62,419 nt of DNA from IMG/VR virus record IMGVR_UViG_3300032285_003500, positions 1-62,419 of that record, one strand, 5' to 3'. This DNA comes from a virus (Duplodnaviria; Caudoviricetes). The position numbers were made by a program, and so were the translations under genes. Within the stretch, counting starts at the first letter, position 1. Every line of letters begins with the position of its first letter. Below the pieces are notes generated by a model. That model was not told where the DNA came from, did no database searches, and saw only the letters and a program-made list of their open reading frames with translations. Shown here piece after piece: positions 15,034 to 60,347 of this stretch.

Positions 15034-15167
15034 GGCGAATCTCCTTGCGAGAGTGGGGCACCAGGTCTATTTAGAACCTTGCCCGGTCAATAATCACACA
15101 CTTTATCCAAATATGTTTGCAGCAGCTATCCATAAATATCACAAACCGCGGACATCTGTTGAACAAT

Positions 15168-21100: not shown

Positions 21101-21716
21101 TTGCATTTTTGTAATGAAACAAATCATTGGCAATGGTCCAGCACTGGAAGGATTCAATGCTGCCAGTCAGCTGTTGCGTCTCAACAAAACTTTCCTACAA
21201 GCTGAGGTTTTGGCCTATGTTATCACAACCAATCCAGGACTGCTGACGCCTGTTCAACAAGCACTGTTCAGTAAAAATTTGGGTAATATTGTGGATGCAG
21301 TGGCAGGAGACTTGGTGGGTGCAGGATTGAGTCCTGTGGGTTATACAGTGGATAATGAAACCACTGTTGTGTTTGAAGAAGCAACCGATTATGCTCCACT
21401 AGACAACGAAATTGTCAACTTCTATCAAGTGAGTGTGGCAAGTGCAAGTGGACATACATTTGAATATGTGGGAGCAGGCACAGATATCAACACCTGCCTG
21501 CCACAACTGGGTGGGGTGCCGGTGCAGGCTAACGAAGTTGTCATGCGCAAGGGCGGTAGGGTCTACTACACTAGCACAGATCACAAAGGTGACTTCCGTA
21601 TTGGTGAAGGATTGGTTATCAACCAGAACACTGGCACACTCAGCGGACGTGTTTTTGCCAAGAGTTTGTTTGGTATTATCACTCCATTCGTGCTCAGCAT
21701 CGAGAATGCAGGATAA
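15168..21716 (+). CDS. Giant virion structural/fibre protein (~2180 aa) with short collagen, G-x-G-Y repeats, beta-helix-like core and four helical repeats
   Basis: TAAATA promoter; [12 protein letters not shown]-terminal motif; repeated (N/D)xGxGY...P.V units; [18 protein letters not shown]; CYRD/CARD helical repeats. Confidence 0.8.
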
Positions 21717-21766
21717 CATCCTGCATTCCCTTGTAAATAGCTGATCAAAGAAATGGGATTCGGATC

Positions 21767-22102
21767 ATGGCTGTTTTGCCCCTCAATACGTTTAGAACTA
21801 TTACAAAAGAACTTACTGCTACTGCGCAAGAAATTTATGTGTGTCCTACTGGCGTCACTGGAATTGTTCTGCTTGCTCAAGTGGCAAATGTCAGTGAAGG
21901 CACTGCGTTTGTTACATTTAGTCACATGCGTCAAAGAACCGAAACAGAGCTGGTAAAGAATAGCCCCATTCCCACACAGGATGCCAGAGCTGTTTTGACA
22001 GGCAGATTGGTGTTGGAAGAAGGTGACCGTATCAGAGTTTTGAGTGACACCAACGGCGCCCTTAAGATCACTTTGAGCTTGGTAGAAAGCGCCAATCAGT
22101 AA
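21767..22102 (+). CDS. Small virion-associated beta-rich protein
   Basis: IYVCPTGVTGIVLLAQVAN...LVLEEGDRI; late promoter; resembles 39179..39508. Confidence 0.65.
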   Translation: MAVLPLNTFRTITKELTATAQEIYVCPTGVTGIVLLAQVANVSEGTAFVTFSHMRQRTETELVKNSPIPTQDARAVLTGRLVLEEGDRIRVLSDTNGALKITLSLVESANQ

Positions 22103-22126
22103 TGCTTAAATATTCAAACATTTTAG

Positions 22127-26137
<4,011 letters not shown>

Positions 26138-29991: not shown

Positions 29992-32900
29992 ATGACAAGC
30001 TATCCCTTTTGGGCTACAGAACCTAACCTTGGCACCTTCAACGAGGGCTACAGCTTTACTGAAAATCCTCTAGTGCTGGGGTTTGGGGAAAGTAATCCCA
30101 CACCCTCCAGTACTTTGACCGTGATACAACTCAACGGTAGTTTACCTGAGGGTATAACCTGGTATCAGTCAGGCAATACCATTGTTCTCAGTGGGTATTT
30201 GCGTCAAGTAAGTTCAGATCAAACATACCAGTTCACATTCAGAGTAAGTAATGGCTCTTATGTGAGCGACAGAACTTTCAGCTTGATTCTTGCCAACATA
30301 GCAGTGCAAGAGTTTTATTTTACAACTTCCAATATTAATCCCTTGATCTATTATTATCAGGAAGGAGTAGCCACAGGCACTGTTCAGGCAGTGAGTATTC
30401 CCGAAACCCCCATCACATATGCCGTCTATAACCCTGATCTGCCGCCGCAAGGTATCAGTATAAATGCACAAACTGGGGTGATCAGTGTAGATCTTACTTG
30501 GAAATCCTTGACTGCTTATCGGACTATAATCAGTGTAGAGAGTGACTATGTTATAAACAATGGTCGTCTTTACGTATGTGTGGTGTCTGGTATAAGTGGT
30601 GGTGTGGGTGGGCCGCTGACAGTAGGTTCTGGGATAGTTGACAGTGACTATCCAGCTTGGCAACCTTCCAGGTATTATCCACTCAACTCTGTTGTAACCA
30701 ACGATCTGGGTAAAATTTATGTTTGCACACAATATGGAAACAGTGGCACAAGTGGTCCCACTGGCACTGATGTGAATATTGTAGATGGCGGTGTAAAGTG
30801 GAGTTATTTGGATCAGGCATTGGTTTGGGATCAAGTACCTCCAAACACAAGTCATACAGTGAGTAGATCAATTGTAGCCCAAACAGGCAATGAAACCATT
30901 TACAAAACATTTGATATTGAATTACTGAGTAGGCCCTATGAACCTGTTTGGGTCACTCTTGCTGGTTCTTTACCGGATGGATATACAAATGGAAACTACA
31001 GCTATCAACTGGATGCATTTGATCCTGACTTACTGGCACTATCCTGGAGTAGCAGTAACCTGCCCACCTGGCTGAGTTTGAGTAATGTTGGATTGCTATA
31101 TGGCACGGCGCCTGTGGTAACAGCCACTACAGTATATTCTTTTAGCATTGAAGTCAGCGACGGTACCTATACAATCAGCAGATCCTTTACTATAAGAGTG
31201 GAAGATTTGATCATTGAGTTCAATTGGGTGAGTGATTCCAATCTGGGATTTTTGTTGGATGGCACCTTCTGCAACAAAAAAATTCAAGCTGTGAGTATCC
31301 GACCTTTAGCTCCTGTCAGCTACGGCCTATCTGGGGGAATGCTGCCTGTGGGCGTATTTCTGGATAATCAGTCAGGATTATTGGAAGGATTTGTGGAATA
31401 TCACGGGCAAGATAAAACCTACTTGTTTGAAGTGACTGCCACAGATGGTGTGGATGTGCTGATACGATTGTTTGAAGTTCAAGTAAAAGCCAGGAATCTG
31501 GGGCATTACTGGAGTTTGAGTGTGCCGTTGTTGGGAACAGATAAAGAACAATTCATTGTGGAAAATGGTGAAAATATTGTTCCCTACCAAGGATTGTATC
31601 TTCCCGAACATACTGGATGGGGCAGGGACACTCATCCCAAGGTTACAATTATCAACGGAGTAAAGGGTATCAATGCCGCAGACTTGCGCACATTGATAGC
31701 CAACTATACTCATAATTTCAATATCAGACTACAAGGATATCAGGTTATAGAGGGACAAGACCCCTCCTTCCAGCTTGTGGCAATTCAATGCCGAGACAGT
31801 GACAGTTTACAGATTTGGCAACCCTCCACGGCTTACAGAATAGGAACAAGAGTCAGCAATGCTGATGGCTACAAATATGTGGCTTTGAATTCGGGTATAA
31901 CTGGCAGTGTAATGATAAGAGGAGTGGGCAATTCCCTTACAGATGGTTCCATGATCTGGGCCTGGGATGGAGTACCCAATAGTATCAGCAATGCTTGGAT
32001 GCTGCCCTGGTATCCCTATCGCACCTACAACTTGGGCGATATCATGGAAAATGATGGCAGCAGATGGCAGGTAGTCACATCAGGTCGCACAAGTGGAGGA
32101 TTGGGGCCACAGATTCAAGATATGAATGATCAAGGCAGAGTCACAGATGGTGAAGTGACTTGGAGCCTTTGGAATTACAACACCAGCCCAAATCGTGGCA
32201 CATTTTGGCCCAGCAATGTGTATAACATGCGCAGAGTTCTAGAAACAGTGGGTTATAGTAACGCTTGGGGAACGGGAGCAAACGTGACTGTGACTGTGGA
32301 TTTCACTGGACAAGTGCGCAGTGCAACCATAGTAAGTGCTGGTGAGGGATACTACAATCCACCTGCATATACTCTCACAGGATCTGGAGGAGGAGCAGAG
32401 CTAGAATTTACTGTGGGTATTTTTGGAGCAGTGCCTGGTGCCAACAGCTTGGGTTATGTATTGGGCGAACAGATCCTGGTGGATTTGGGCAATGGCACAC
32501 CTGCAATTTTACAAGTGAGCGAAGTGGGACCATTTGGTAGAGTAGATCAAATATCTATTGTAAATCCTGGAAGTTTTGAGAGAATCCCAGTGGGGCCTAT
32601 TGCGTTAAGCACTGGAGTCAAGAGATTGAGTGTAAACTTTATTGCAGGGTTGAGCACTGTGAGTGTTATGACAGCAGGTTCAGGATATACACAAAACAAC
32701 ACATTTGTAAATGTGAGAGGCAAAGAGTTAAATGGGGATATGAATTATCTCTCCAACACGTTTGATTTGTACTTGCCCTTGGCCTATGCCACACCCCAAG
32801 GTATAGCCTCCTTTGATTTGAATCAGGTCAACCCTTATCAGGGGCAAATTGTGGAAGCCCATTTGTTGCAAGCAACTATTCAGGGTATCGCTTGGGCTGG

Positions 32901-33201
32901 TTACAGTAGATTTGATAATGATCAGGCTGTATTTGATGAGGACAGCACACGCTTTGTGGATGTGGATCCCAGCACCGAAACAACATTTGATCAAAACAAC
33001 ACTATTTGGGAAAATAATACTACCACCTGGGATCTGGCCAAGATAATTTGGCCACGCTGGAGCGACACAGTGTTTGACGGGGACCATACCATGTTTGACT
33101 ATTATCGAACACTATTTGATGGAACCTCACCCAGAACAGACAGTGTTTACAGCAAAACATTCCTGTGGTGGTTTGGCAAGCCCTTTGAAACTAACCAGTA
33201 A
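29992..33201 (+). CDS. Virion/baseplate protein with Ig-like (He_PIG/cadherin-like) and CBM5/12-like W-x-P-x-x-x-Y repeats
   Basis: GSLPEG/LPTWL/GMLPVG Ig-like units; four W..(S/Y)..Y..G..(Y/W) modules; C-terminal TxFD repeats; late promoter. Confidence 0.75.
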   Translation: MTSYPFWATEPNLGTFNEGYSFTENPLVLGFGESNPTPSSTLTVIQLNGSLPEGITWYQSGNTIVLSGYLRQVSSDQTYQFTFRVSNGSYVSDRTFSLILANIAVQEFYFTTSNINPLIYYYQEGVATGTVQAVSIPETPITYAVYNPDLPPQGISINAQTGVISVDLTWKSLTAYRTIISVESDYVINNGRLYVCVVSGISGGVGGPLTVGSGIVDSDYPAWQPSRYYPLNSVVTNDLGKIYVCTQYGNSGTSGPTGTDVNIVDGGVKWSYLDQALVWDQVPPNTSHTVSRSIVAQTGNETIYKTFDIELLSRPYEPVWVTLAGSLPDGYTNGNYSYQLDAFDPDLLALSWSSSNLPTWLSLSNVGLLYGTAPVVTATTVYSFSIEVSDGTYTISRSFTIRVEDLIIEFNWVSDSNLGFLLDGTFCNKKIQAVSIRPLAPVSYGLSGGMLPVGVFLDNQSGLLEGFVEYHGQDKTYLFEVTATDGVDVLIRLFEVQVKARNLGHYWSLSVPLLGTDKEQFIVENGENIVPYQGLYLPEHTGWGRDTHPKVTIINGVKGINAADLRTLIANYTHNFNIRLQGYQVIEGQDPSFQLVAIQCRDSDSLQIWQPSTAYRIGTRVSNADGYKYVALNSGITGSVMIRGVGNSLTDGSMIWAWDGVPNSISNAWMLPWYPYRTYNLGDIMENDGSRWQVVTSGRTSGGLGPQIQDMNDQGRVTDGEVTWSLWNYNTSPNRGTFWPSNVYNMRRVLETVGYSNAWGTGANVTVTVDFTGQVRSATIVSAGEGYYNPPAYTLTGSGGGAELEFTVGIFGAVPGANSLGYVLGEQILVDLGNGTPAILQVSEVGPFGRVDQISIVNPGSFERIPVGPIALSTGVKRLSVNFIAGLSTVSVMTAGSGYTQNNTFVNVRGKELNGDMNYLSNTFDLYLPLAYATPQGIASFDLNQVNPYQGQIVEAHLLQATIQGIAWAGYSRFDNDQAVFDEDSTRFVDVDPSTETTFDQNNTIWENNTTTWDLAKIIWPRWSDTVFDGDHTMFDYYRTLFDGTSPRTDSVYSKTFLWWFGKPFETNQ

Positions 33202-33263
33202 TGAACCTGAACAACGATCTGCACATACTAGATCGATCGCTAAATATGAGATTGAAAATCTAG

Positions 33264-35234
<1,971 letters not shown>

Positions 35235-39559: not shown

Positions 39560-42160
39560 ATGGACACTGGTAAACTTACCATTCGCGGCACAATAGACGC
39601 AAGCAATAACACTGCCAGCTTTGTTCTGCCCAAAGGCACGACTGCCCAACGCCCCTCCAGCCCCACTGGCGGCATGATGCGTTACAACACAGATATAAAT
39701 CAAATCGAAACATGGGATGGAAGCATTTGGGTGCGAGTGGGCGGCACTGGCACAACTGGTACAACTGGCTCAGGAGCCACAGGAGCCACAGGAGCCACAG
39801 GCTCCACAGGAGCTCCAGGATCTGCTTCCAACACCGGAGCAACTGGTGCCAGTGGAATAGGCCCCACAGGAGCTACAGGAGCCACAGGAGTCCCTGGATC
39901 TGCTTCCAACACTGGGGCAACTGGGGCTACAGGTCCTGTGGGCTGGACGGGTCCCACAGGCGTGGCTGGGGCTGCGGCCAATACTGGTGCAACTGGCTCA
40001 ACTGGAACAACTGGAGGCAGTGGTGCCACAGGAGCCACAGGGGCCAAAGGAGATTCTGGCTCTGCAGGAGTGCCAGGGCCCTCTGGAGTTACGGGCGCCT
40101 CAGGTTCACAAGGTCCATCAGGACCAACTGGAGTGCAGGGCCAAACTGGAGCCACAGGCAACCAGGGGTTGACAGGAGCCACTGGTAGAACAGGCGCCAC
40201 AGGTGCAACTGGCACAAACGGCACTGGGGTTACTGGAGCAACAGGCGCCCCTGGAACAGCCGCCAACACTGGTGCAACTGGGGTCACTGGCCCCACAGGG
40301 GGTGGAGGTGCAAGCCTGCCTATCAGCAGTGCTGATGTGACCTTCTTGCAGGCGGGCACTAGTGCAGTTTCACGCACTGGTCAGTCCAAGTATCGCGATG
40401 TGGTGTCAGTATTGGATTTTGGTGCAGTGGGTGATGGCACAACTGATGACACAACTGCCATACAGAATGCACTGAATACGAAAAAGAATGTTTACCTGCC
40501 ACCTGGAAGATATTTGGTCACATCCGGACTTGCCATGACTTCTAACGGTCAAAGGATGTATGGGGAAAGTGGTTTTGGTCCATTTGCCCTTACTGAGGTG
40601 TCGGCAGCAACAACCGCCTGCACTTTTATTGAATGGGGAGCTCCCAATGACGGTGCGGAAAGAAATGTTATCACCATTGATGAACTAGCACATTGCATAA
40701 TTGAATCCCTTGTTATTCGAAGAAGTCCTGCCCAATTTTCAAATCAGCTTACAAATGGCCACGCTGTGGTGTTTAAGAACTCATACTGTTCCGAAGTGAG
40801 AACATGCAGAATCACAGGCACGGGCAACGGCATTTCCATGTGGGGCACAGGCAATCAGGTGATCGATTGTGAACTGAGGGCGTTTTACGGAAGTTATGGG
40901 GTAAGATATTTTGGCACCGCAGCCAAACCCAGCCTTCGCGGTGTGCTTCAACGAGTTGTTTCAGATCAAGTAGATGCATTTGCTTACGGAGTTCCCACTT
41001 CTTTCACTCATGTGGAATATGACAGTTATGCTCACAGTCTGATCATTGAGGCATGTGCTCTGCTCCAAGGCAACACCGCAATTTATATGCATGATAGCAT
41101 AGGCCTAGCAGACTCCTGGCCCACGTGGATACATGCTTTTGACGTAGAGTGTGATCATCAATATGGCACAGGAATAATTTTAAGTGGAGGGGAAGGTTGT
41201 TTTATTACCACAAGTTGGATTGGCTCCACTTACTTGGGCAATGGCATTGTCACACAAGGAAATTGGCGCGGTGAACTACTGGTCACCAATAGCCGCATTT
41301 TGGGCAATGCCCAGTATGGCATTTTGTTGAATGCTGGCGTTGATGCATGCATAAACAACAATATTATCAGCGCCAACTCCCAACACACCGCAGGTTGTGC
41401 AAATGTGGGAGTGGGAGTCAATGTGAGCAAATTTGCTATCACAGGTAATAAGATTGGTGGCGACATCGTTGGCAACGTGGGTCCACAAACTTATGGTATA
41501 TACATTGTGGGTGGCACAACTGATTATTATCAAATAGTGGGTAATGTTATTGTTGGTAGCACCACTGCCATCTCGGATGGCGCTACTAGTGCCACCAACA
41601 AGATTGTTCAAGACTTTACTGTAAACGGCGGCGGCCTAAAAATGACCGGCAACCTGATTGCTGCCAGTCTTGTTCCACTGGCTGACAATACCTACGATCT
41701 TGGCGGACTGCCTGGATCTCGTTGGGCAAACGTTTATGCTGCCAACGGCACCATCAACACAAGTGACGCATCTTTAAAAACCAACATTTCTCCACTGCCC
41801 ACAGTATTGACAATTATTGAGGACATTGATCCCGTAACCTTCAAGTGGATTTCAGGTGGACTTGTGCAAGAAAAGAGAGTCACCCGGAAACAATTTCCTG
41901 TGCTGGGTGGTGAAGGATTTGTGGAACAAGATGTGGAGGAAACAGTTTATGTGGATAGACCGGGCAAGCGCACCCATTGGGGCTTCCTGGCATCTGATGT
42001 GAAGGCTGCCTTTGACAAAACTGGCATGGACTTTGGTGGTTATGTAAAAGATGAACAGGGCACTGAGCATCTGAGACCAGACCAGTTGATCCCCGTTCTG
42101 TGGAAAGCTGTGCAGGAATTGAAGGCAGAAATAGATATCCTCAAAGCTTCCAAATCGTAA
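39560..42160 (+). CDS. Tail fibre/spike: collagen, pectate-lyase-3-type beta-helix and S74 chaperone
   Basis: [31 protein letters not shown]; [28 protein letters not shown]. Confidence 0.88.
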
Positions 42161-49650: not shown

Positions 49651-50673
49651 ATGGACCAACGCATTGGCTTTTGTTGCAAGATGCTGCCTGAACAGACCTT
49701 TACTACAAAAAAGGATGCACAGGCCTGGCTGGATCTGCACAACTGCAAAAGCACCACTGTGGCCTATCTGGACAGGCTCAATCGCACTCACGCCATTGAT
49801 AAGATTTGCAGCATTATTCAACACAACCAGCGGGCACTCAGCGCACAGTTCAAGGCTATTGGCAGCTGGCCTCAAGAACTGCGCATGGTGCGTATTGGCA
49901 GTGAAATCCTGCCTGTGCGAACCTTTGAGCGCTACAGGGATGTGTATTTGGAACCAGTTGTGCGCAAGACATTGGAGGGCTTTCATGCTGTGGGCGAATT
50001 GGCACGCAAGCATGATATCCGACTGAGCACACATCCTGGGCAATTTTCGATTATTACAAGCGATAGTGAAAATGTGGTAAATCGAGCCATTGAAGACTTG
50101 GAATATCATGCTGAAATCTTTCGGCTCATGGGCTATGACAGCAGTGACCAACGACAGGAAATCAACATCCATGGTGGTCCACAGAGAGCAGACATGGTGG
50201 AACGATTCAGGGCCAGTGTGCGCCGGCTGTCCACAGACACTCGTCAGTGGTTGAGTGTGGAAAACGATGAATACAGTCATGGACTGGATGATCTGCTGCC
50301 CCTGGCAGACACTGTCAAGATTTGTGTGGACATCAATCACCACTGGATCAAAGAGGGTGTGTATTTGCAGCCGGATGATCCACGCATGACGCGAGTGGTG
50401 GAAAGCTGGCGTGGAGCACGTCCAGAAATTCATGTGGCCTACCCACATGAACTTGTGCTGGCAGGTCATGATGTGGAAACACTGCCTGACATGGCTGTGA
50501 TGGAAAGCAAAAAGATCAAACGTGGTAAACTGCGGGCGCACAGTGATCAAAGCTGGATCCCGGCCATCAGTCGTTATGCACTCACCTTCTGGGGCCTGGC
50601 TGACTTGTGCGTGGAAGCCAAACACAAAAACCTGGCCAGTAAAAATTTGTATAATCTTACCACAAAAGTTTAA
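49651..50673 (+). CDS. uvsE: UV-damage endonuclease (UvsE/UVDE)
   Basis: RIGFCC, RLSTHPGQF, INIH, SVENDE, DINHHW, RAHSD and EAK.KNLA motifs. Confidence 0.92.
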   Translation: MDQRIGFCCKMLPEQTFTTKKDAQAWLDLHNCKSTTVAYLDRLNRTHAIDKICSIIQHNQRALSAQFKAIGSWPQELRMVRIGSEILPVRTFERYRDVYLEPVVRKTLEGFHAVGELARKHDIRLSTHPGQFSIITSDSENVVNRAIEDLEYHAEIFRLMGYDSSDQRQEINIHGGPQRADMVERFRASVRRLSTDTRQWLSVENDEYSHGLDDLLPLADTVKICVDINHHWIKEGVYLQPDDPRMTRVVESWRGARPEIHVAYPHELVLAGHDVETLPDMAVMESKKIKRGKLRAHSDQSWIPAISRYALTFWGLADLCVEAKHKNLASKNLYNLTTKV

Positions 50674-50716
50674 ATACGTCTATTATACTAGTCATCATAC
50701 AAGGAGATATCATGAG

Positions 50717-51100
50717 ATGAGTAAAAACCTACCAAGCTGGGGTAAGCATCTGGTTGTAGATGCAGCAGGAGCCACTGAGGCTATCAATGACAAGGACACT
50801 ATCGTTCGTTTCACCAAGCAACTGGTCAAGGACATTGACATGGTAGCATTTGGTGAACCCCAAGTGGAATGGTTTGCGGACCATGATCCCAACAAGGCTG
50901 GATTTACTCTAGTGCAGATGATCGAAACCAGTGCAATTGTGATTCACTTTGTGCCACGCACTTGGACCCTACACGCGGATATTTTTTCCTGTAAGGACTT
51001 TGACTGTGATACAGTAATCAATCTGTTGAAGGAATATTTCGGCGTCAAGGCTTGGAACACAAAGGTGTTTGAGCGCGAAGCCCCAGATCTTTCAGCTTGA
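50717..51100 (+). CDS. Second AdoMetDC-fold pyruvoyl decarboxylase (phage type)
   Basis: WGKHLVVD, IDMVAFGEP, QMIET/S cleavage site and DIFSCKDF motifs. Confidence 0.8.
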   Translation: MSKNLPSWGKHLVVDAAGATEAINDKDTIVRFTKQLVKDIDMVAFGEPQVEWFADHDPNKAGFTLVQMIETSAIVIHFVPRTWTLHADIFSCKDFDCDTVINLLKEYFGVKAWNTKVFEREAPDLSA

Positions 51101-51137: not shown

Positions 51138-51413
51138 CTAGATTTCCTGGATTGACAGCACCAGATCATCACATCCACGGATAATGCGATGATATACTCC
51201 TGCTGGCACACACCAGCTATCGCCGGGCTGGATCATCTGGGGCATTTGGTTGTCCAACTGGAACTGCCAGCCGTCCCCTTGCACTACGGTGATCTTTCTT
51301 GTAGCATAGTCCCTGTGCCACACCAGTTCAGATTCCTGCACATCTAATGGGAAAGTGCGCTCAAATGACTTGGGGGCAGTGGGGTGATCCTGGTAGGGAA
51401 CAACCTCTACCAT
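51138..51413 (-). CDS. Small cupin-like phage protein
   Basis: ELVWHRD..W.FQLDN..P..YHRIIRG; starts in the ATGGTAG overlap. Confidence 0.75.
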   Translation of the reverse strand: MVEVVPYQDHPTAPKSFERTFPLDVQESELVWHRDYATRKITVVQGDGWQFQLDNQMPQMIQPGDSWCVPAGVYHRIIRGCDDLVLSIQEI

Positions 51414-52024
51414 TCTGCATTTCCTTCAAATCCAGCTTCATTTAGTTCGCTGGCACACTTGAGTATGTCACCTGGGTTGGTGGTGCCCTCATACTTCCTT
51501 AATATGATTAGGCATTGGGTTTGTAGTTGATAGCTATATTCATTGTTCACAAACATGTGTATGGTTTTTATAGGCAGCAGGCTCAACATGGCCAAGTGGG
51601 GGCTCCAAGTCACTCCCACCTTTTCTAAATTATCCGGCAAACCTTTTAAACTTTGCAATGGATTGTCCTGCACCCACAGTTGTTGCGCCTGGGGAGCATA
51701 CTCCAGTGATGTGAGTTTACAGCCCCTGGCATAAACTTCCGCTTTGACCACAGCCGGTCCACCAGCAAAGGTGGTGATGGGATTGCTCCTGCACACAAAC
51801 ATACCGCCCACTGTGCGTGGGCACCCTTTCAAAGTCTTGAGGCCTGAGTTGAGTAGGTTGAAGTCTTGGGTGACTGTGCCAAATTGCACAGGAAGTCGAG
51901 CCTTCTTGTGCATGAGTGTCACATTGCCATTCACATTCACCACGCCTGTGTCCTCTATATCAAAATCGCCTTCAATATAAAAATCCTTTTTGAGTGCTGT
52001 TTTGATCATATCTTTGTCTACCAT
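51407..52024 (-). CDS. LRR-array paralog 9 (4 modules)
   Basis: MVD start, LPVQFG, L.SL.G.P repeats, conserved CASELNEAGFEGNAEW tail. Confidence 0.85.
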   Translation of the reverse strand: MVDKDMIKTALKKDFYIEGDFDIEDTGVVNVNGNVTLMHKKARLPVQFGTVTQDFNLLNSGLKTLKGCPRTVGGMFVCRSNPITTFAGGPAVVKAEVYARGCKLTSLEYAPQAQQLWVQDNPLQSLKGLPDNLEKVGVTWSPHLAMLSLLPIKTIHMFVNNEYSYQLQTQCLIILRKYEGTTNPGDILKCASELNEAGFEGNAEW

Positions 52025-52590
52025 TCTGCATTCCCCTCAAATCCCGCTTCATTCAGTTCACTGGCGCAACGTAGTATGTCACCTGGGTTGTTGGTGCCCA
52101 TATATGGCTGCATGATTTTCCAAGCCTTTTCTCCAGCAAAAGTGCCACCATATTTTACTGGATAAGCGAACTTGACGTTTTTGTAGGTTAGTAATCTCAA
52201 CATGGGCAGATGGGGATTCCACATGAGGAAATAAAAACTAGCACCCTGGGGCAGATGTTCCAGTGATTTGAGCTCCGGTGACCTGACTCCAAAAGTTCCC
52301 CGCACAGTGTGGGGAGCACCTTCCAAGCTTTCCAATATTTCGGCTTTGACCAAAAAATCTCCGCCCACATACTGGGGACTACCCACCAAGCTGGTGAGTG
52401 TGGGTTGCTTGCCCAAGTGAAATCCGCGACTGACTTCCAGGAAGGACACTGGCAGCCGGCTAAAGATGTTGATAGCCTCAGCCATGCCCTTGACACTCAC
52501 CAGTCCCTGGTCATTTATTGTGACCTGCTCCATGGTGAGTGTGACGAAATTGGCTTTGAGAGCTGCAAAAATCTTTTCTTTGTCTACCAT
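52018..52590 (-). CDS. LRR-array paralog 8 (3 modules)
   Basis: Same architecture and tail. Confidence 0.85.
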   Translation of the reverse strand: MVDKEKIFAALKANFVTLTMEQVTINDQGLVSVKGMAEAINIFSRLPVSFLEVSRGFHLGKQPTLTSLVGSPQYVGGDFLVKAEILESLEGAPHTVRGTFGVRSPELKSLEHLPQGASFYFLMWNPHLPMLRLLTYKNVKFAYPVKYGGTFAGEKAWKIMQPYMGTNNPGDILRCASELNEAGFEGNAEW

Positions 52591-53210
52591 TCTGCATTCC
52601 CTTCCAATCCGTGTTCGTTGAGCTCACTGGCACATCTTAGTATGTCAGCTGGATTGGTTGTGCCTGCATACTTTTCCAGAATACGCTTGCAATCCCTAAT
52701 CTTCTCCATGGGCTGGGAGGACATGGGGTATGCACTGAGTATGTCAATTTCCTGTGCTGTAAGAGTGCGCAGCAAAGGCAAATGTGGATCATAACTCACA
52801 GTCACCAGCTGCAAGCGTTTGGGAAGTCCTTCCAGGCTGGTCAAGGGATTATTAGCTAGGTATAGGTGCTTGGTTTTGGGGCACCCCTTCAAGTTGGTTA
52901 TTTGGCTGTGGTTGATCATGACTAGACCGCCCACTCGTTGGGGAGCCCCAGTCAAATCTTTGATAGGGTTGTGCGTGCTGGTGAATGCGTTGCCCACATA
53001 TGTGGGGCACCCTTCCAGTGTGGTCAACAAGCCAGTTTCCAGTTTAAAATTGTTGCTCACTCTGCCAAATTTCACAGGCAACTCTGTTATACCGGAAGTG
53101 AGCTCAATGCTGCCTTCACAGCTGACAACACCATCATCATCCACCCTGAGCTCACCAGCATACCAAAACCAACGGCGCACTTCCAGGAGGATTTTCATTT
53201 TGTCTACCAT
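52584..53210 (-). CDS. LRR-array paralog 7 (4 modules)
   Basis: Same architecture; closest to paralog 1. Confidence 0.85.
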   Translation of the reverse strand: MVDKMKILLEVRRWFWYAGELRVDDDGVVSCEGSIELTSGITELPVKFGRVSNNFKLETGLLTTLEGCPTYVGNAFTSTHNPIKDLTGAPQRVGGLVMINHSQITNLKGCPKTKHLYLANNPLTSLEGLPKRLQLVTVSYDPHLPLLRTLTAQEIDILSAYPMSSQPMEKIRDCKRILEKYAGTTNPADILRCASELNEHGLEGNAEW

Positions 53211-53959
53211 TCTGCATTTCCTTCAAATCCTGCTTCGTTTAGTTCACTGGCACAACGAAGTATGTCAGCTGGATTTTGTGTGCCCTTGTATTTGTTGAGT
53301 ATTGTCCATACCGGTTTGGGAGCAGCCATCATGTCCAATTTTTTAGCCTGCAAGGTAATCAGTCGCAATAAAGGCAAATCCTTTTTATAATCGCACTCAA
53401 ATAAATGTCCCACCCTTTCTGGTGCGCCCTCAAAACTTTTAAGTGGGTTGAGCCGACAGTTGTATCTGTCCATGACCTGAGCAGGACCTCCCTCCAAACT
53501 GGTGAGCTTATTACTAGCACAAATGAAGCTGCCTCCCACCCACCTGGGAGCACCTTGCAAGCTTGTTAACTGATTATTGTCGCAGGCAAACCAGTCACCC
53601 ACTTTTTCAGGAGCGCCCTTCAAGCTGGTGAGCTGGTTGGCCATACAGCTGAATCCCCCATGCACTACACGGGGCGCACCCACAAGATCCTTGAGCAGGT
53701 TACCAAAGCAAAAAAAGTCACCATGTATGGTGTGAGGTGAACCTTTGAGACTGGTCACACCTTTTTCGTAACAGGCAAAATCGCCCTGGACTGTGCCAAA
53801 CTGCACATGGAATTGGCCTTGGCTGGCTTCCGCCCCCTTGAATGTCACATTACCCACCACATCCACTTCCCCGTTTTGGGGATTCACCTCAAAGGTGCCC
53901 TTGTTGCTGATTTTAAAATGCTTTCTTACCAATCTGCTGATTTGTTTTACATCTACCAT
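53204..53959 (-). CDS. LRR-array paralog 6 (6 modules)
   Basis: Six 21-aa LTSLxGAPxxVxGxFxCxxNx modules. Confidence 0.85.
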   Translation of the reverse strand: MVDVKQISRLVRKHFKISNKGTFEVNPQNGEVDVVGNVTFKGAEASQGQFHVQFGTVQGDFACYEKGVTSLKGSPHTIHGDFFCFGNLLKDLVGAPRVVHGGFSCMANQLTSLKGAPEKVGDWFACDNNQLTSLQGAPRWVGGSFICASNKLTSLEGGPAQVMDRYNCRLNPLKSFEGAPERVGHLFECDYKKDLPLLRLITLQAKKLDMMAAPKPVWTILNKYKGTQNPADILRCASELNEAGFEGNAEW

Positions 53960-54570
53960 TCTGCATTTCCTTCAAATCCTGCTTCGTTTAGATCGCTGGC
54001 ACACTTGAGTATGTCAGCTGGATTTTTGGTTCCTGCATATTTTCTGATTATATCAGTGACCGAGTCAGGTGCATGTCCAATCCAGGGATGCGGATAAGTG
54101 ATCAATCTTAGCACAGGTAGCTGTGGATTCCAAGTACACCAAAATTCATCCCCCACATGCTCAGGAGCACCCCCCAAGCTGGTGAGCGGGTTATACTCGC
54201 AGTCAAACGTGTCTCCCACATGCTTGGGTGCCCCCATCAAACTGGTGAGTTTATTATGATGACAAATAAAGTCACCACCCACGTGCTGGGGAGCTCCCTC
54301 CAAGCTGGTGAGTTCACTGTTTGAGCAGATGAAATATCCTTTCACATGATGCGGTGCGCCCACCAGGCTGGTGAGAGATGAAAAAATACACCTGAAATTG
54401 CCAGATACAGTGCCAAAAGATACTGGTAGTTGTTTCACGTCGGTGTCCATTAACTGCACATCACCATGCACATTTACCTTGCCATCTGATCCAATATTGA
54501 CTTCACGATCAGGCCCACTTGTGTTGAAATATTTCCAAAACACCTTTTTGATTTGTTTTGTATCTACCAT
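53953..54570 (-). CDS. LRR-array paralog 5 (4 modules)
   Basis: Same architecture and tail. Confidence 0.85.
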   Translation of the reverse strand: MVDTKQIKKVFWKYFNTSGPDREVNIGSDGKVNVHGDVQLMDTDVKQLPVSFGTVSGNFRCIFSSLTSLVGAPHHVKGYFICSNSELTSLEGAPQHVGGDFICHHNKLTSLMGAPKHVGDTFDCEYNPLTSLGGAPEHVGDEFWCTWNPQLPVLRLITYPHPWIGHAPDSVTDIIRKYAGTKNPADILKCASDLNEAGFEGNAEW

Positions 54571-55244
54571 TCTGCATTCCCCTCAAATCCTGCTTCGTTT
54601 AGTTCACTTGCACAACGCAGTATGTCAGCTGGATTTTTGGTGCCTGCATACTTGTTTATTATGTAGTTTACCTTATATCCTCCACCCAAAAGTTGCACAT
54701 GGGGATACATGATGGTTCTCAACAACGGTAAATGTGGGTAGTATGTGCATATGAATTCCTGACCCACTTGCTCAGGTGCCCCTTCCAAACTGGTGAGATT
54801 TGGGCAATTCCTCCAGGAAAAAATCCCTCCCACATAAGTGGGGGAACCCTCCAAGCTGGTGAGTAATTCACCTCCGTCACCACCACCATAAAAACTGCCA
54901 CCCACATGAGCAGGAGCACCCAGCAAGCTCTCAAGTTTATTACCGCCGCATGAAAAATTATCACCCACATAATCAGGGGCGCCTTGCAAAGTGGTTAGTG
55001 CGTTTAACCAACAGGTAAAGCCTCCTCCCACACGACGGGGCGACCCTATCAAGGTGGTCAAAGATCTCTCATGGCACGAAAAAGCATCTGACACATCACC
55101 AAATTGCACAGGTAACTGTTTGACCTTCTTCTTTAGGAAGACTTGCCCCTTAACATCCACCACGCCATCAGGGTGTATGATCACATCACCCAGTATAGTA
55201 AAGTACTTCTGTAGTCTGGCCTTGATTTCTTCCACATCTACCAT
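54564..55244 (-). CDS. LRR-array paralog 4 (5 modules)
   Basis: Same architecture and tail. Confidence 0.85.
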   Translation of the reverse strand: MVDVEEIKARLQKYFTILGDVIIHPDGVVDVKGQVFLKKKVKQLPVQFGDVSDAFSCHERSLTTLIGSPRRVGGGFTCWLNALTTLQGAPDYVGDNFSCGGNKLESLLGAPAHVGGSFYGGGDGGELLTSLEGSPTYVGGIFSWRNCPNLTSLEGAPEQVGQEFICTYYPHLPLLRTIMYPHVQLLGGGYKVNYIINKYAGTKNPADILRCASELNEAGFEGNAEW

Positions 55245-55906
55245 TGTGCATTTCCTTCAAATCCAGCTTCGTTTAGTTCACTGGCGCAACGTAAAATATC
55301 AGCTGGATTTTTGGTGCCTTCATATTTGCTGATTATATCAGACACTGAGCCAGGTGCATCTCTAATCCAGAGATCCTGATAAGTGATCAATCTTAGCACA
55401 GGTAGCTGTGGATTCCAAGTACACCAAAATTCATCCCCCACATACTCAGGTGCACCCTGCAAGCTGGTGAGGTTATTGTGTTGGCAAATAAAATCAGCCC
55501 CCACATGACGAGGTGCGCCTTGCAAGCTGGTGAGCAAATTATTGCCGCAATTAAAATCACCCTCCACATGATCTGGTGCGCCCTTCAAACTGGTGAGCTT
55601 ATTGTTGTAGCAATAAAAACTACCCTCCACGTGAACAGGTGCGCCCTGCAAACTGGTGAGCTTATTTGCGTAGCACTGAAAACTACCCTCCACGTGAACA
55701 GGTGCACCCTGCAAACTGGTGAGCAAATTATGGCTGCAATTAAAATGACCCTCCACATGACCAAATTGCACTGGTAACTGTTTAATCTGACGCTTTAATT
55801 CCACGTCACCTTGCACATCCACCACACCATCAGGGCGTCTGGTCACCTGCCCGCTGATTTTGAAGTATTGCTTGAGTACCTTTTTTATTTGGTTAGCATC
55901 TACCAT
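55238..55906 (-). CDS. LRR-array paralog 3 (5 modules)
   Basis: Same architecture; near-identical 63-bp-period internal repeat. Confidence 0.85.
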   Translation of the reverse strand: MVDANQIKKVLKQYFKISGQVTRRPDGVVDVQGDVELKRQIKQLPVQFGHVEGHFNCSHNLLTSLQGAPVHVEGSFQCYANKLTSLQGAPVHVEGSFYCYNNKLTSLKGAPDHVEGDFNCGNNLLTSLQGAPRHVGADFICQHNNLTSLQGAPEYVGDEFWCTWNPQLPVLRLITYQDLWIRDAPGSVSDIISKYEGTKNPADILRCASELNEAGFEGNAQW

Positions 55907-56601
55907 TGTGCATTCCCCTCAAATCCAGCTTCATTCAGTTCACTGGCACAACGTAAAATATCACCTGGATTTTTGGTGCCCACATAGGGTGCGAATATTT
56001 TTCCGAACTTGCGTATAGTAATAATGGACACAGACGGCCCACCCTTGGCCACACCCATCACAGTCACTCTCCTAGCTTGCAAGGCGGGCAAAAATCCCAA
56101 TTGGGGATCATAGGATAGTTGTATCCAATCAATGTTCTCTGGTATATCTGCCAGACTCTCCAAGGGATTTTCATATACTGTCAATTGAACGTTGTCAGGA
56201 CAATGCTTCAAGTTCTTGAGTTGACAGTCTCTGGCCACCAGTTTACTGCCGATTTGAACACTCACATGTTCCAAACTTGTGATGGGATTTTTATAGCAAA
56301 TATAGTCCTTGCCCACTTGACGCGGCCCTCCTGCCAGTGATGTGACACCACTCCAGCTACAGTCAAATTCACCACCCACAATTTCAGGACAACCTTCCAG
56401 GCTGGATAATTTTGTGGCAATCCTAAAGTCACCTTTCACATGTTTGAATTTTATGGGCAATTGGGGTTCACTACCCCAATACTCCAGGTTACCATCATAG
56501 CTGACCACACCCTGGCTATCAATGCTATAGTCAGCGTTGGGTGTTCTGAATCCTGAGAATTCTTTGTACAACGTCTGCAGAATACGATCTTTGTCTACCA
56601 T
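55900..56601 (-). CDS. LRR-array paralog 2 (5 modules)
   Basis: Same architecture and tail. Confidence 0.85.
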   Translation of the reverse strand: MVDKDRILQTLYKEFSGFRTPNADYSIDSQGVVSYDGNLEYWGSEPQLPIKFKHVKGDFRIATKLSSLEGCPEIVGGEFDCSWSGVTSLAGGPRQVGKDYICYKNPITSLEHVSVQIGSKLVARDCQLKNLKHCPDNVQLTVYENPLESLADIPENIDWIQLSYDPQLGFLPALQARRVTVMGVAKGGPSVSIITIRKFGKIFAPYVGTKNPGDILRCASELNEAGFEGNAQW

Positions 56602-57224
56602 TCTGCGTTTCCTTCAAATCCGTGTTCGTTTAGTTCACTGGCGCAACGTAGTATGTCAGCTGCATTTCCTGTGCCACAATATTTGTTGAGAATCGCTTCA
56701 CATAATTTGGTCTCTTCGTTTCGAGTGTACTTCCCTGGAGTGGAAACATAATACAGAGTAATTTTTTTTGCAACCAGTGCTCGTAGAAGGGGTAGATGAG
56801 CATCGTAAGTTACCAATAGACTTTCCAGGCGTGGAGGAATACCTTCCAGGCTGGTCAAGGGATTATTGACTAGGTTTAGGTACTTGGGTTTGGGGCACCC
56901 CTTCAAGTTGGTTATTTGGCTATTGAACATGACTATACTGCCCACTTGTTGGGGAGCACCAGTCCAATCTTTGATAGGATTGTTAATGCAAATAAACTGG
57001 TTGCCCACATATGTGGGGCACCCCTCCAGGGTTTTGAGTTGATTACTCTCCAGACGAAAGTTCTCGTCTACTCTTTTAAACTGCAAGGGCAATTTGCTCA
57101 TCCTGCTGGTCATCTGCACACTGCCTGCGCAACTGATCAAACCATCACTGTCCACAGTTACAGACCCATTATAGGCAAAATGGCGTCCCAAGTCGCGTAT
57201 TATTTGTTTGCTGTCTACCACCAT
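56595..57224 (-). CDS. LRR-array paralog 1 (4 modules)
   Basis: Same architecture; start ATG 57224 or GTG 57221. Confidence 0.85.
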   Translation of the reverse strand: MVVDSKQIIRDLGRHFAYNGSVTVDSDGLISCAGSVQMTSRMSKLPLQFKRVDENFRLESNQLKTLEGCPTYVGNQFICINNPIKDWTGAPQQVGSIVMFNSQITNLKGCPKPKYLNLVNNPLTSLEGIPPRLESLLVTYDAHLPLLRALVAKKITLYYVSTPGKYTRNEETKLCEAILNKYCGTGNAADILRCASELNEHGFEGNAEW

Positions 57225-57784
57225 TTACCACCACCACTTAGTCCGAGACTTTTACTGTACCTGGGAAGTCTGCACGACCAGTATCTGGCACTCATGCGGT
57301 CATTGGCTTGTTCACAGCGATGACGTGCCGCAAAATTGGCACGGGCTTGTGGATCAGCCAGTTTAACTTTCAAACGTCCAGTGGCATCACCAAAGCTGAT
57401 TTTTTTGACCTTGTCAGTGCTGGGGTTCTTCACATAAACATAAAACTTTTTACTGCCACCACGATGAACTTTGCCCAACTGCACTTTCTTGCCCTTGTAT
57501 TCGGCTTCCAACAGGGCCTCATGCATGTGCTCAGTGAGTGGCACATCCAAGGGCACACGAACACCCTCATAAATGGCCCAAGTGCCTATGTCTGTAAGCA
57601 GCAGTTCCTGATCATCCTCGTGAAACTGGATGCCTTCTGCCATCATGGTTCGTGCATGTTCAAAAAACTGGCACCAGCTGTCGCTCAACATACGGAACAT
57701 GTTATCTTCCAGGGGGATTTCACAGCAGACGTGGTTTTCCAGTAGTGTCTTGTAATCTGTTTGTGTAAGTTCGTGTATCTTCAT
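57215..57784 (-). CDS. Conserved phage protein with basic Cys-containing C-terminal domain
   Basis: EAEYKGKKV.L.K..KKFYVYVKN..VKKISFG..FAARHRC..RYWSC; TAAATA upstream. Confidence 0.8.
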   Translation of the reverse strand: MKIHELTQTDYKTLLENHVCCEIPLEDNMFRMLSDSWCQFFEHARTMMAEGIQFHEDDQELLLTDIGTWAIYEGVRVPLDVPLTEHMHEALLEAEYKGKKVQLGKVHRGGSKKFYVYVKNPSTDKVKKISFGDATGRLKVKLADPQARANFAARHRCEQANDRMSARYWSCRLPRYSKSLGLSGGGKWW

Positions 57785-57825: not shown

Positions 57826-58452
57826 ATGAAGATAGTTGATTTACTCTTACAAGAGTCTCGCTCCACTCCCGTGATCTGTGTGGATGTGCAGCCTGAATAT
57901 AGTGGCATCATGGATGGGGATGAAAGTCCTGTGTTTGAACAGATCATACAATTTGTGAATAACCAAACTGGTCCTGTGCTCATGTTTGTGAACGCCGAAG
58001 ATCAGGGTTTGAGCGGTGATACTGTGGCATCTGTGAAAGAGTATTGGCAAGATAGTGGCTTTGATCCAGATAATTGGCGCAGAGTTACCGTTGTGGACAA
58101 GGGATATGGATACTTGAGAGCCTGGATGGATCAGGGCATTGATGCTAGAGCAATCATTCGCACCATACGTGAGATGTACAAGCAAAAAGTGGATGATAGT
58201 AGACTACTTTTTGATGGTGAAGATTCTGACACCTATCAGGGTGACATGCAAAATCTGTTGGGTGTAGACTATGATGATGTTGTGTTATCAGATCCGTTGA
58301 TTACCCAATGGACCAGCATTGCTCAGCTCAAACGTTTTAGTGGCGCTTACATTGTGGGTGGTGGAAGAGACGAATGCTTGAGAGAGGTGGAACTGCTCAT
58401 GAATGCCTTCAACATAAAATACAAAAGAATTGACAGTTTGGTGTACGGATGA
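57826..58452 (+). CDS. Cysteine-hydrolase (isochorismatase)-like protein
   Basis: VICVDVQPEY, DKGYG and VGGGRDECLREV motifs. Confidence 0.55.
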   Translation: MKIVDLLLQESRSTPVICVDVQPEYSGIMDGDESPVFEQIIQFVNNQTGPVLMFVNAEDQGLSGDTVASVKEYWQDSGFDPDNWRRVTVVDKGYGYLRAWMDQGIDARAIIRTIREMYKQKVDDSRLLFDGEDSDTYQGDMQNLLGVDYDDVVLSDPLITQWTSIAQLKRFSGAYIVGGGRDECLREVELLMNAFNIKYKRIDSLVYG

Positions 58453-60347
58453 AGATACAAGATTTGCTCAACAAGCCCACCATGACTGTGGGTCAGCTCA
58501 GTAAAAAATATCACACAGCTCCCAGCGCAGTGGAAACTGAACTCAGCAAGGGTGTGAAAGTGGAAATGGAGCACACCAATAATATTCAAGTGGCTCGTGA
58601 GATAGCCTTGGATCATTTGGGTGAAGATCTCTACTATTATGACAAGTTGAGCAAGATAGAAAAGCCACTGGCAGAAGCCTTGGACCAATATTCCCCAGTG
58701 GAGGATCCCACACCCAGTGAACTCAAGCTGCTGGCTCGCCGCAACAAATATCATAGTGCTAGATTTGTTGTTTACAAGCCTGACCGTGAAGGTACCACCC
58801 ACTGGATAGCTGCTGATAGTGAACACTTCACACACCACAGCATGGCACCAGCCATGGGAGCTTGGTTGATCAGAGGATATGTGCAATACCTGGGTGATAA
58901 TGAGTACGCCTATCGCAGCATGGAAGTTTACAGCCCCAAAACAGTGGATCATCCCCTGTTCAGAACCTGGGAGCGGGCAGGAATTCAAAATGGCAACCCT
59001 GAAGTTGTAGAATCATATTCCTCTCACCTGAAGGAAAGCGCCATTGATTTGAGCCAGGGTGGTAGAGCTGTCAAGGACCTTAGAGTGGAAGGCGTGGTCA
59101 AGATGGCTCGCAAACAACCAGTGCGAGGGCTAGTGTTTGGCAGACACATTTATTGGTGGCCAGCTTCAAATGCCACTCATGGTGAAGTGGCAGCACAGTT
59201 GGGGTTCACAGATTATGTGGACTACAGACTCATGCTCAGCAAAGAGAACGATGAGTTAAGACTTAGAGGTGATCCTGTGGAGATCCAACAATGGATGCAT
59301 CATGTCAAAGCGTGTCCCCAGCTGAACAAGCTCACCCAATCAGATCAATTATACTTCCATGCAGGCAGCCATGGGTGGGTCACAGGTGCTGAATTTATTC
59401 AGATCGTATCTGATGAACCAGTTTCAGAAGCTTGGAGCAAGAAATACAAAAAGAGCATCAACTGTGCCAACCCCAAAGGATTCAGCCAACGTGCTCACTG
59501 TGCAGGCAGGAAAGCCAGATCAGCACACAGAAAAACTAAATCCACAAGTGTGAGTGAGGCTACCACCAGAACCAGCAAACAAGGCGCACCAGGCACTCTC
59601 AAAGCCAAGATATCAGGCAAAGTCACATGTGACAAAGTGCAAAAACTCAAACACAGAAGAAATGCCACCCCACATGATGTGAGTCAAGCCAACTGGTTTA
59701 TAAACATGCATAATTGTGAAGAATCTGTGCGCTTGAGTGAAATTTTCCAGGAGCCTGCGCAACCGGCAGACTGGAAAAAATTCCAGCACGGCAAATACAC
59801 TTCCTGGGAAACAGAGTTTTATCTACTCAACAAATTGATAAAAGTTGAAGTTCATGGTGATTACAACCAGACTGGCGCACTATTTGTCACACGCAATACA
59901 GATTTGGATTTGCCCAAGACTTATCAAGGATATCAAGTCATATTCAGAGTGGCTGGCAGCACAGAAGTCACCGGCGAAATGGGTGCATCCGCTGCCAAGG
60001 TATTCGAAGATGTGGTGAGCGTGTTCCGAGGGTTTTTTGACACGCATGACTGGGACTATATTCTGTTCACAGGTCAAGAAGGCAGCAGAGATAGTTTATA
60101 CGACAGGATAGCTCAACGGTTGGCCCGTCAAGTGGGTGCCAAAGTGGCCACCTACAGAAGTGAGTTTCTCATATACAAACCTGGTGACGGATTAGCCGAA
60201 CAGGGAGGAGTGGGACTTGTGGTGCCGGGTGTGAACATGCCAGCCGGCATGCATCCAGATGAGATTCGCCGTCAGGCCCGAAAGTTTGGTTTTAAAACAA
60301 CCAAAGATGGTGTACCTCCTGTGACAAGAACTGACGGAAAATATTGA
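58449..60347 (+). CDS. Mosaic multi-module protein, probably head-internal
   Basis: GVKVEMEHT..AREIALDHL.ED..YY.KL module; WSKKYKKSINC.NPKGFSQRAHC module; modules separated by (L/V)xE. Confidence 0.7.
   Translation: MKIQDLLNKPTMTVGQLSKKYHTAPSAVETELSKGVKVEMEHTNNIQVAREIALDHLGEDLYYYDKLSKIEKPLAEALDQYSPVEDPTPSELKLLARRNKYHSARFVVYKPDREGTTHWIAADSEHFTHHSMAPAMGAWLIRGYVQYLGDNEYAYRSMEVYSPKTVDHPLFRTWERAGIQNGNPEVVESYSSHLKESAIDLSQGGRAVKDLRVEGVVKMARKQPVRGLVFGRHIYWWPASNATHGEVAAQLGFTDYVDYRLMLSKENDELRLRGDPVEIQQWMHHVKACPQLNKLTQSDQLYFHAGSHGWVTGAEFIQIVSDEPVSEAWSKKYKKSINCANPKGFSQRAHCAGRKARSAHRKTKSTSVSEATTRTSKQGAPGTLKAKISGKVTCDKVQKLKHRRNATPHDVSQANWFINMHNCEESVRLSEIFQEPAQPADWKKFQHGKYTSWETEFYLLNKLIKVEVHGDYNQTGALFVTRNTDLDLPKTYQGYQVIFRVAGSTEVTGEMGASAAKVFEDVVSVFRGFFDTHDWDYILFTGQEGSRDSLYDRIAQRLARQVGAKVATYRSEFLIYKPGDGLAEQGGVGLVVPGVNMPAGMHPDEIRRQARKFGFKTTKDGVPPVTRTDGKY

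Follow-up and report, generated by a model that had tools for sequence, protein, structure and literature searches.

How can a phage change the number and order of a row of related genes without losing their expression? This question is raised by a locus on the minus strand of IMG/VR virus record IMGVR_UViG_3300032285_003500 (Duplodnaviria; Caudoviricetes), which was analyzed here as one complete record of 62,419 bases (the "window"; its CheckV completeness of 14% marks it as a fragment of a large phage genome). From 57784 down to 51138 the minus strand holds eleven co-directional genes: an upstream gene, nine paralogs (p1 to p9) and a small cupin-like gene. Our best explanation, to which we assign a probability of roughly 0.8, is that the nine genes are old paralogs for leucine-rich repeat (LRR) proteins whose shared 3' tail is dual-coding, forming a modular, self-coupling array that is changed by in-register recombination.

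The nine paralogs all terminate in GF(L)EGNA(E/Q)W before the stop, and the underlying tail is TTT GAR GGR AAY GCA SAA TGG TAG in eight of the nine genes, with TTG replacing TTT in p7. The last base of the penultimate NNA codon and the TG of the Trp codon make up the ATG of the next gene, producing a stop/start overlap of 7 nucleotides (nt), and a purine run lies at about -14 to -9 of all nine overlapped ATGs (GAAGGA in five genes, GAGGGG in three and GAAGGG in one). The sequence AATGGTAGA is present at each of the nine paralog-to-next-gene junctions and at no other site in the window on either strand; 7-nt overlaps are likewise confined to the array, the window elsewhere showing ordinary 4-nt overlaps (six cases). 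This nine-gene junction pattern is far beyond chance. Moreover, Shine-Dalgarno (SD)-like 4-mers were found upstream of 22 of the 59 other window genes against a background of 14%; thus the phage's host appears to use SD pairing, and reading GAAGGA and GAGGGG as SD sequences is reasonable.

The first-pass annotation of this DNA had described nine minus-strand paralogs at 51407-57224 with a shared tail and the ATGGTAG overlap, as well as the 7-mer TGGTAGA at ten junctions including both outer ones, and both descriptions held. On the minus strand TGGTAGA occurs at 11 sites, i.e., the ten junctions plus an unrelated in-frame site at 26363, and on the plus strand at six; the site at 26363 (ATGGTAGA) is an internal M-V-D of another open reading frame (ORF) and was taken as chance. 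The further claim that every tail provides the SD-like run and start codon for the gene behind it is true of all nine paralog tails; it does not extend to the tenth junction, from the upstream gene to p1, which reads AAATGGTGGTAGA, has no SD-like run, and offers two possible starts for p1: a GTG (7-nt overlap, MVD) and, three bases before it, an ATG (10-nt overlap, MVVD). Stop and start thus overlap at all ten junctions: by ATGGTAG at nine, whereas at the tenth the overlap is ATGGTGGTAG or GTGGTAG.

The paralogs are 37-59% identical to p1 outside the tail and their bodies average ~0.35 amino-acid identity in pairwise comparison; the tail of ~27 residues (GTxNPADILRCASELNEAGFEGNAEW) is near-invariant. 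An AlphaFold2 model of p3 (mean predicted local distance difference test score (pLDDT) 97.1, predicted template modelling score 0.91) consists of a repeat solenoid with an N-terminal cap, and its tail forms a C-terminal helix (201-213) and an ordered terminal strand with pLDDT of at least 90. In structure comparison by VIA-align, internalin C scored Z 13.0 (root-mean-square deviation 4.3, 176 aligned); internalins, like the LRR domains of IpaH, SspH1 and YopM, scored Z 12-13, and 50 of the 50 rows shown were LRR proteins; Foldseek against the PDB gave weak E-values (best 5e-3). At the sequence level, the Pfam LRR_4 match of p1 was below threshold (21.3 bits versus a cut-off of 27) and four other paralogs scanned had no LRR match; several relatives carry a precomputed PF12799 assignment. 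Based on the structural model, the nine paralogs are predicted to encode LRR solenoid proteins. The nearest ESM Atlas clusters are hypothetical proteins of 89-100% viral origin (one weaker structure row was 67% bacterial). Repeat number varies among the paralogs (190 to 251 amino acids), which represents a second level of modular length change.

Identical junctions might also be plain inheritance from a recent burst of tandem duplication, without selection, as tandem duplication copies the junction automatically, and the 66-nt identical tract shared by p3 and p5 would suit such a burst. We regard this explanation as having next to no probability, on four grounds: i) the bodies are far too diverged (the identities given above); ii) body synonymous sites are near the codon-usage expectation; iii) the junction is kept in the arrays of other phages that have different tails, with all three stop codons; iv) p6 has orthologues in the related loci L142-L144, and the paralogs thus predate the split of these phages.

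Codon choice was compared in paralog pairs sharing a residue that has more than one codon, with the last 27 codons taken as the tail. Identical codons were used in 539 of 791 comparisons in the tail (68%), 1037 of 2274 in the body (46%) and 227 of 288 in the last ten codons (79%), numbers that derive from non-independent pairs; the codon-usage expectation was 36-40% for tail and body and ~44-45% for the last ten codons. In a test by column, which is not pair-based, mean pairwise codon identity at invariant-residue columns was 0.64 in the tail (n=17) versus 0.40 in the body (n=21; one-sided Mann-Whitney p=0.0007), so that the synonymous-site comparison proposed in the first-pass annotation came out on the side of the tail. 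Such synonymous conservation, higher in the tail than in the body and highest in the last ten codons, argues against the view that the tail is conserved for the protein only (as C-terminal cap or partner handle), with the start and the purine run as by-products of E-G-N-A-x-W and with no special role in recombination. Although the ordered tail of the p3 model (helix 201-213, end pLDDT at least 90) is what this view would expect, we consider it unlikely, also in the light of the junctions and crossovers described below.

Junctions of the same kind were found well beyond the window. A profile search identified 2003 relatives among 8000 scored candidates, and a census of C-termini was taken on the best 120: 55 of them end in [NH]AxW, of which 46 begin MV (38 MVD), and the residue preceding Trp is R, E, K, Q, A or G, every one with an NNA codon. 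When viral contigs were scanned for the junction motif, 61 stretches were returned; 23 of them contain family genes, the longest arrays having eight or more. Over all loci there were 67 distinct family 3' ends with downstream DNA. This set is biased to conservation, its loci having been fished with the junction motif itself; the unbiased junctions are the others in those arrays and those of the array L170. Forty-nine of the 67 enter the next family gene via a 7-nt overlap (ATGGTAG, ATGGTAA or ATGGTGA; stops TAG in 37, TAA in 7 and TGA in 5), with an NNA penultimate codon in 48 and AGG, which leads to a GTG start, in one; an SD-like run is present at 48 of the 49. At six more 3' ends the overlapped start opens another frame of at least 60 codons (five cupin-like genes and one family gene cut by the contig end). 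L170, an array of nine genes found by body peptides alone, has six of its eight internal junctions overlapped. The 7-nt junction is therefore a conserved hallmark of the NAxW-tail subfamily in many phage contigs and not a relic of recent duplication.

Four of the 67 3' ends have neither ATG nor GTG: one internal junction with TTG, and three terminal genes with nothing behind them. The latter carry CGC, CGC and CGT before TGG and, instead of the purine run, GAAAAAAAT or GACAAGAAC, so that an SD-like run is found in none of the three (two are near-identical, which leaves two independent cases). Where Arg precedes Trp, internal junctions thus use AGA or CGA (or AGG, which makes a GTG start) and the three terminal genes CGC or CGT. 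Furthermore, the SD-like run persists despite the residue changes EG, ED, EE, ER, KE, KD, NR, GG and AE. Both the codon difference at Arg and the persistence of the run across residue changes speak against conservation of the tail for its protein alone.

Several side observations came from the same survey. In a more distant array (L165:4200-4260 and L166:740-770) the junction reads GCA TGG TGA gccc ATG, with a 4-nt spacer, and the overlapped ATG opens a 4-codon frame. The loci L171 and L172 turned out to belong to a more distant tandem LRR subfamily, with neither the Trp tail nor an ATGGTAG-type junction, and were set aside. At L035:2470-2500 and L044:140-165 (strand-oriented) a frameshifted tail relic, tttgaaggaatgcaagATGGTAA, stands before the first array gene (MVNVKEIE); the relic is one A shorter than the usual GGAAATGCA and has in-frame stops ahead of it, and it looks like a decayed upstream paralog whose junction is still serving. 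Megablast of the region against 50,697 phage records gave no match, and a pattern scan of viral contigs from the first paralog alignment gave no relative. The match in H3, an uncultured phage record of 735 kb, was rejected because it falls within a protein of 1032 aa and not in a tandem family gene. No description of the LRR family or the junction was found in full-text literature (main texts), and passages of a preprint on phage Goslar hold nothing on either.

Strain variation at the locus allowed the array's changes to be mapped. Three metagenome contigs (L160-L162), with flanks 95-97% identical to the window, carry four array genes versus nine. These are, in order, p2', a chimera of p3-head (first ten residues) and p5-body, p6', and a p9 orthologue with a p7-type tail, and all junctions are ATGGTAG; p2 and the first array gene of L161 share 95% amino-acid identity. 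The first joint is exact, running from the upstream gene through ...AAATGGTGGTAGACA into p2, and the 9-mer TGGTAGACA is the sole sequence common to the two parental junctions there; the second joint lies in AAAAAGGTG of the heads, and the third in the tails of p6 and p8 (Table 1). All three joints recur, with a shorter side of 139-255 letters, in contigs of a lake-water metagenome (run X6), which may stem from the same sampling campaign as L161 and were counted with it as one variant. Joints in runs X1, X2 and X3 had 18-35 letters on the shorter side, in repeated tails where contigs break, and were rejected as assembly ambiguity; uncovered parts in X2, X3 and X6 were excluded as evidence of absence. 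Because p1, p4, p7 and p8 are old paralogs, it is simpler to suppose that the four-gene strain has lost genes, the directions of the individual events being inferred.

Thus the expectation of the first-pass annotation that crossovers in the tail would add or delete whole genes with junctions kept was borne out by a sibling strain (nine versus four genes, with joints in junction core, head and tail), and the skipped-junction variants that it had suggested looking for are present in L160-L162 and X6. Crossovers mapped to tail, head and junction are also difficult to accommodate with a tail that has no recombination role.

The tails bear a further mark of exchange. In a comparison of eight arrays, within-genome pairs (124) had a body identity of 0.32 and a tail identity of 0.81, versus 0.31 and 0.47 for between-genome pairs (866). 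Among orthologues the relation is reversed: WIN_6 and L142_4 have 0.75 in the body and 0.30 in the tail, the range for p6 against its orthologues in L142 and L144 being 72-75% and 30-33% respectively. Thus the tail follows the genome, not the gene. Moreover, 32 of the 36 paralog pairs have their longest exact nucleotide match, of 11-39 nt, within the tail; taken with the crossovers mapped above, this is indicative of recombination. A common partner with which the tails co-evolve could contribute to the genome-specific pattern, which would also be expected if the tail served the protein alone. The array thereby shows the features of concerted evolution: a segment more alike within than between genomes, a copy-number difference (9 versus 4) and in-register crossovers. 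As a separate observation, p3 and p5 share an identical 66-nt body tract (55378-55443 and 54093-54158), located 140 nt before the stop and far exceeding other body matches, which suggests recent gene conversion between the two genes.

The question of where the array came to stand was approached through its flanks. Searches with the two flanking proteins produced 98 related loci with 55 distinct junction contexts. Both flanking genes are on one strand in 93 of the 98 loci; homologues of the upstream gene are present in 96 and have a Trp-stop end in 54 of the 55 contexts, nearly all array-free. The cupin-like gene starts within ~60 nt of the upstream gene in 28 contexts, and the other 27 have 0.18-3.2 kb of other DNA between the two. 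At L102 the flanking genes are joined directly by GTGGTAA without an available ATG, representing an empty site, and in the cultured Flavobacterium phage immuto_3-5A the flanking homologues are adjacent annotated genes 1 nt apart. Only three of the 98 loci, L142-L144, contain family genes, and these three also rank closest to the window by their cupin-like gene: in L142 five paralogs lie between the flanking genes, this being the only such locus with LRR genes that spans both flanks, and in L143 and L144 the arrays run into the cupin-like gene, with the upstream gene beyond the locus end. On these sequence comparisons the array site is taken to be an ancestral gene junction, the two genes being neighbors in most related phages.

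The first-pass annotation had proposed that the array was inserted or expanded at an ancestral W-stop/MV junction, in the manner of a duplicated target site. The ancestral junction stands, on the strength of the 93 loci and the empty sites that it had asked for; the likeness to a target site is not supported. That the array is a mobile insertion whose terminal TGGTAGA was duplicated by a recombinase or transposase would fit the identical 7-mer at both array ends, the adjacency of the flanking genes in most relatives and the family arrays in other settings where neither flanking gene is in the fetched DNA. Nevertheless we hold it to be very improbable: i) the 7-mer is at all ten junctions, inside every repeat unit; ii) the Trp-stop of the upstream gene is native, being found in 54 of 55 contexts and at empty sites; iii) the L142 array occupies the same site with a non-overlapping 5' junction, its first paralog starting 3 nt after the upstream stop; iv) the window and L161 differ there by gain or loss of one gene bounded by the 9-nt match TGGTAGACA, and a deletion of this kind would itself make a flush 5' junction. 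Consistent with the first-pass annotation, which had seen no recombinase nearby, none of the 15 neighboring gene products scanned against Pfam (a part of the window) was a recombinase, integrase or transposase; their families were UvdE, DNA ligase, HD, methyltransferase, glycosyltransferase, collagen/tail-fibre, DUF5661, or none. The S-adenosylmethionine (SAM) decarboxylase-like gene beside the array, covered by the PHROGs scan only, is not a recombinase.

Two side observations concern this site. Variability at the boundary between the upstream and cupin-like genes seems to be general among these aquatic phages. At L142:2740-2790 the upstream gene ends in SPINAQWW (AAT GCA CAA TGG TGG TGA), where its closest homologues end in GGG(K/T)WW; the AATGCACAATGG found in it is the same as the end of the p2 and p3 tails of the window, and the family tail may have recombined into the neighboring upstream gene in L142.

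In the proposed mechanism, the last codons of the tail serve three ends at once. They encode the residues (...NA-x-W) that complete the C-terminal cap; they contain the purine-rich SD-like run, 8-9 nt ahead of the following start; and the A that ends the penultimate NNA codon, joined to the TG of Trp, is the start codon of the gene that follows. A ribosome ending at TAG, TAA or TGA would then step back four bases to this ATG and restart, with the purine run assisting, and the paralogs would be made in step from one transcript. Head, junction and tail hold nearly the only nucleotide identity common to the paralogs. Recombination there adds, removes or swaps whole genes in register, and it homogenizes the tails within a genome.

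Besides the limits on sampling and independence given with the codon pairs, the 3' ends and the X6 contigs, several points weigh against this explanation. At eight of the 67 3' ends an overlapped ATG or GTG is kept, but the frame behind it is short (<60 codons), and in L170 two of the eight internal junctions use a separate ATG 6 nt past the stop with the overlapped ATG still there; hence an overlapped ATG can persist without evident use, as a tail conserved for the protein would also allow. Terminal genes that lack the ATG still end in NARW, which, together with the ordered modelled tail, indicates that much of the tail conservation is at the protein level. In L165-L167 the junction has drifted and contains a spacer. 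An RNA hairpin hiding the start codon was rejected: for the nine junctions RNAalifold returned -4.2 kcal/mol, an unfavorable covariation term and a compensatory change in only one of 13 pairs, i.e., no conserved junction structure. Finally, a search of sequencing runs for the locus found nine runs, all DNA contigs and none from RNA, so that coupling and the single transcript are predictions from DNA.

As for the transcript, a strong stem-loop follows the cupin-like gene and likely terminates both the minus-strand unit and the converging plus-strand gene (Table 1), and promoter-like and terminator-like sites within the array showed no excess over shuffled sequence. With one strong terminator after the cupin-like gene and no excess of internal sites, the eleven genes look like a single transcription unit; we infer that the upstream gene, p1-p9, the cupin-like gene and the terminator form one such unit on the minus strand. 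Fusion of adjacent paralogs by frameshift or read-through was set aside, with no slippery heptamer visible at GCA GAA TGG TAG. The last gene had been labeled a cupin in the first-pass annotation; Pfam matches are present but below threshold (Cupin_2, 19.7 bits with a cut-off of 27.2; Cupin_1, 16.5 with a cut-off of 22), and we call it cupin-like.

Table 1. Genes, junctions and terminator of the array, and joints between the window and the four-gene strain (window coordinates; aa, amino acids).
Feature	Position	Strand	Details
Upstream gene	57215..57784	-	189 aa, C-terminus GGGKWW-stop; first gene of the putative operon; ORF and phrog_7595 match
5' outer junction AATGGTGGTAGA	57214..57224	-	upstream-gene stop TAG overlaps p1 start: ATG (10 nt) or GTG (7 nt)
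p1, LRR protein	56595..57224	-	209 aa; ATGGTAG overlap with p2 at 56595-56601; missing in sibling strain
p2	55900..56601	-	233 aa; ATGGTAG overlap with p3 at 55900-55906
p3	55238..55906	-	222 aa; ATGGTAG overlap with p4 at 55238-55244; 5.3 tandem copies of a 63-nt LRR unit in 55427-55763 (77% matches)
p4	54564..55244	-	226 aa; ATGGTAG overlap with p5 at 54564-54570; missing in sibling strain
p5	53953..54570	-	205 aa; ATGGTAG overlap with p6 at 53953-53959; p3-head/p5-body chimera in L161
p6	53204..53959	-	251 aa; ATGGTAG overlap with p7 at 53204-53210; orthologues in L142 and L144
p7	52584..53210	-	208 aa; ATGGTAG overlap with p8 at 52584-52590; missing in sibling strain
p8	52018..52590	-	190 aa; ATGGTAG overlap with p9 at 52018-52024; body missing in sibling strain
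p9	51407..52024	-	205 aa; ATGGTAG overlap with cupin-like gene at 51407-51413; L161 orthologue has p7-type tail
Small cupin-like gene, downstream	51138..51413	-	91 aa, MVEVVPY...; start codon from p9 tail
Strong stem-loop	51103..51130	.	12 pairs (6 G-C), T runs on both sides; likely terminator
First joint	56591/57212		620 letters skipped; 9 shared; junction core
Second joint	54541/55878		1336 letters skipped; 8 shared; head
Third joint	52090/53277		1186 letters skipped; 8 shared; tail

The array resembles several known systems in part. Translational coupling by stop/start overlap (ATGA/TAATG termination-reinitiation) likewise has a same-strand overlap and an SD-like run inside the upstream coding sequence; the overlap is 1 or 4 nt there versus 7 nt ([A/G/T]TGGTRR) here, where coupling would follow from the sequence arrangement, and the overlap of the array is fixed to W-stop over M-V and inherited within a family C-terminal tail across many phages. 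Tandem multigene families can be under concerted evolution, including the "genomic accordions" of large DNA viruses. The array is like these in its copy-number change between strains, its crossovers in shared segments and its within-genome homogenization, but only the ~80-nt tail and a short head are homogenized here, the bodies being ~35% identical, and the homogenized segment carries the start signals of the neighboring gene. With bacterial LRR proteins (internalins and the LRR domains of IpaH, SspH and YopM) the paralogs share the predicted solenoid and N-terminal cap (Z 12-13 over 176-193 aligned residues), but at 7-24% identity, with no E3-ligase or anchoring domain and with a C-terminal cap and tail specific to the family. 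Integron and cassette arrays are similar as a row of exchangeable genes behind one promoter-proximal gene with a repeated boundary sequence; in contrast, the 15 products scanned include no integrase, there is no attC-like structured site, and here the boundary is in coding sequence and the genes are of one protein family. The novelty lies in the combination, in an unnamed phage LRR family, of probable overlapping-gene coupling with a tandem family under concerted evolution, both of known kinds.

Dual coding of ~25 nt (protein end, ribosome-binding site and next start), conserved across a large phage family, would explain how a phage can reorder its LRR genes and alter their number while keeping them expressed. 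Furthermore, the signature NA-x-W-stop over M-V lets such arrays be found and their turnover followed in metagenomes. More tentatively, and with rather less than an even chance of being right, the array may act as a recombinase-free cassette system, in which the genome-specific tail is a homology address by which whole genes for LRR binders are added, dropped or swapped in register with immediate expression, each cassette supplying the ribosome-binding site and start codon of any gene that comes to lie after it, and providing a fast-evolving repertoire for host recognition or for neutralizing host defence. If so, co-infecting relatives would swap genes, and the turnover would be readable directly from metagenomes; should the LRR proteins act in host range or counter-defence, the array would offer a compact setting in which to study the evolution of such a repertoire.

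The surroundings of the array contain further genes of interest. Downstream, a UvdE ultraviolet endonuclease gene (Pfam, 124.7 bits) and the SAM decarboxylase-like gene (phrog_3125), both within 49651-51100, converge on the array terminator. On the other side, 58449-60347 on the opposite strand adjoins the operon and encodes a 632-aa protein with a DUF5661 match; in the family relative P0069, DUF5661 is fused to LRR_4 in the precomputed Pfam list. Farther away, very large tail-fibre-like genes (2199 and 1332 aa) are found in 15117-26137, 29992-35234 and 39560-42160, with many PHROG tail-fibre matches. Pfam collagen repeats occur in 33273-35234 and 39560-42160, the latter also having beta-helix and endosialidase-chaperone domains.

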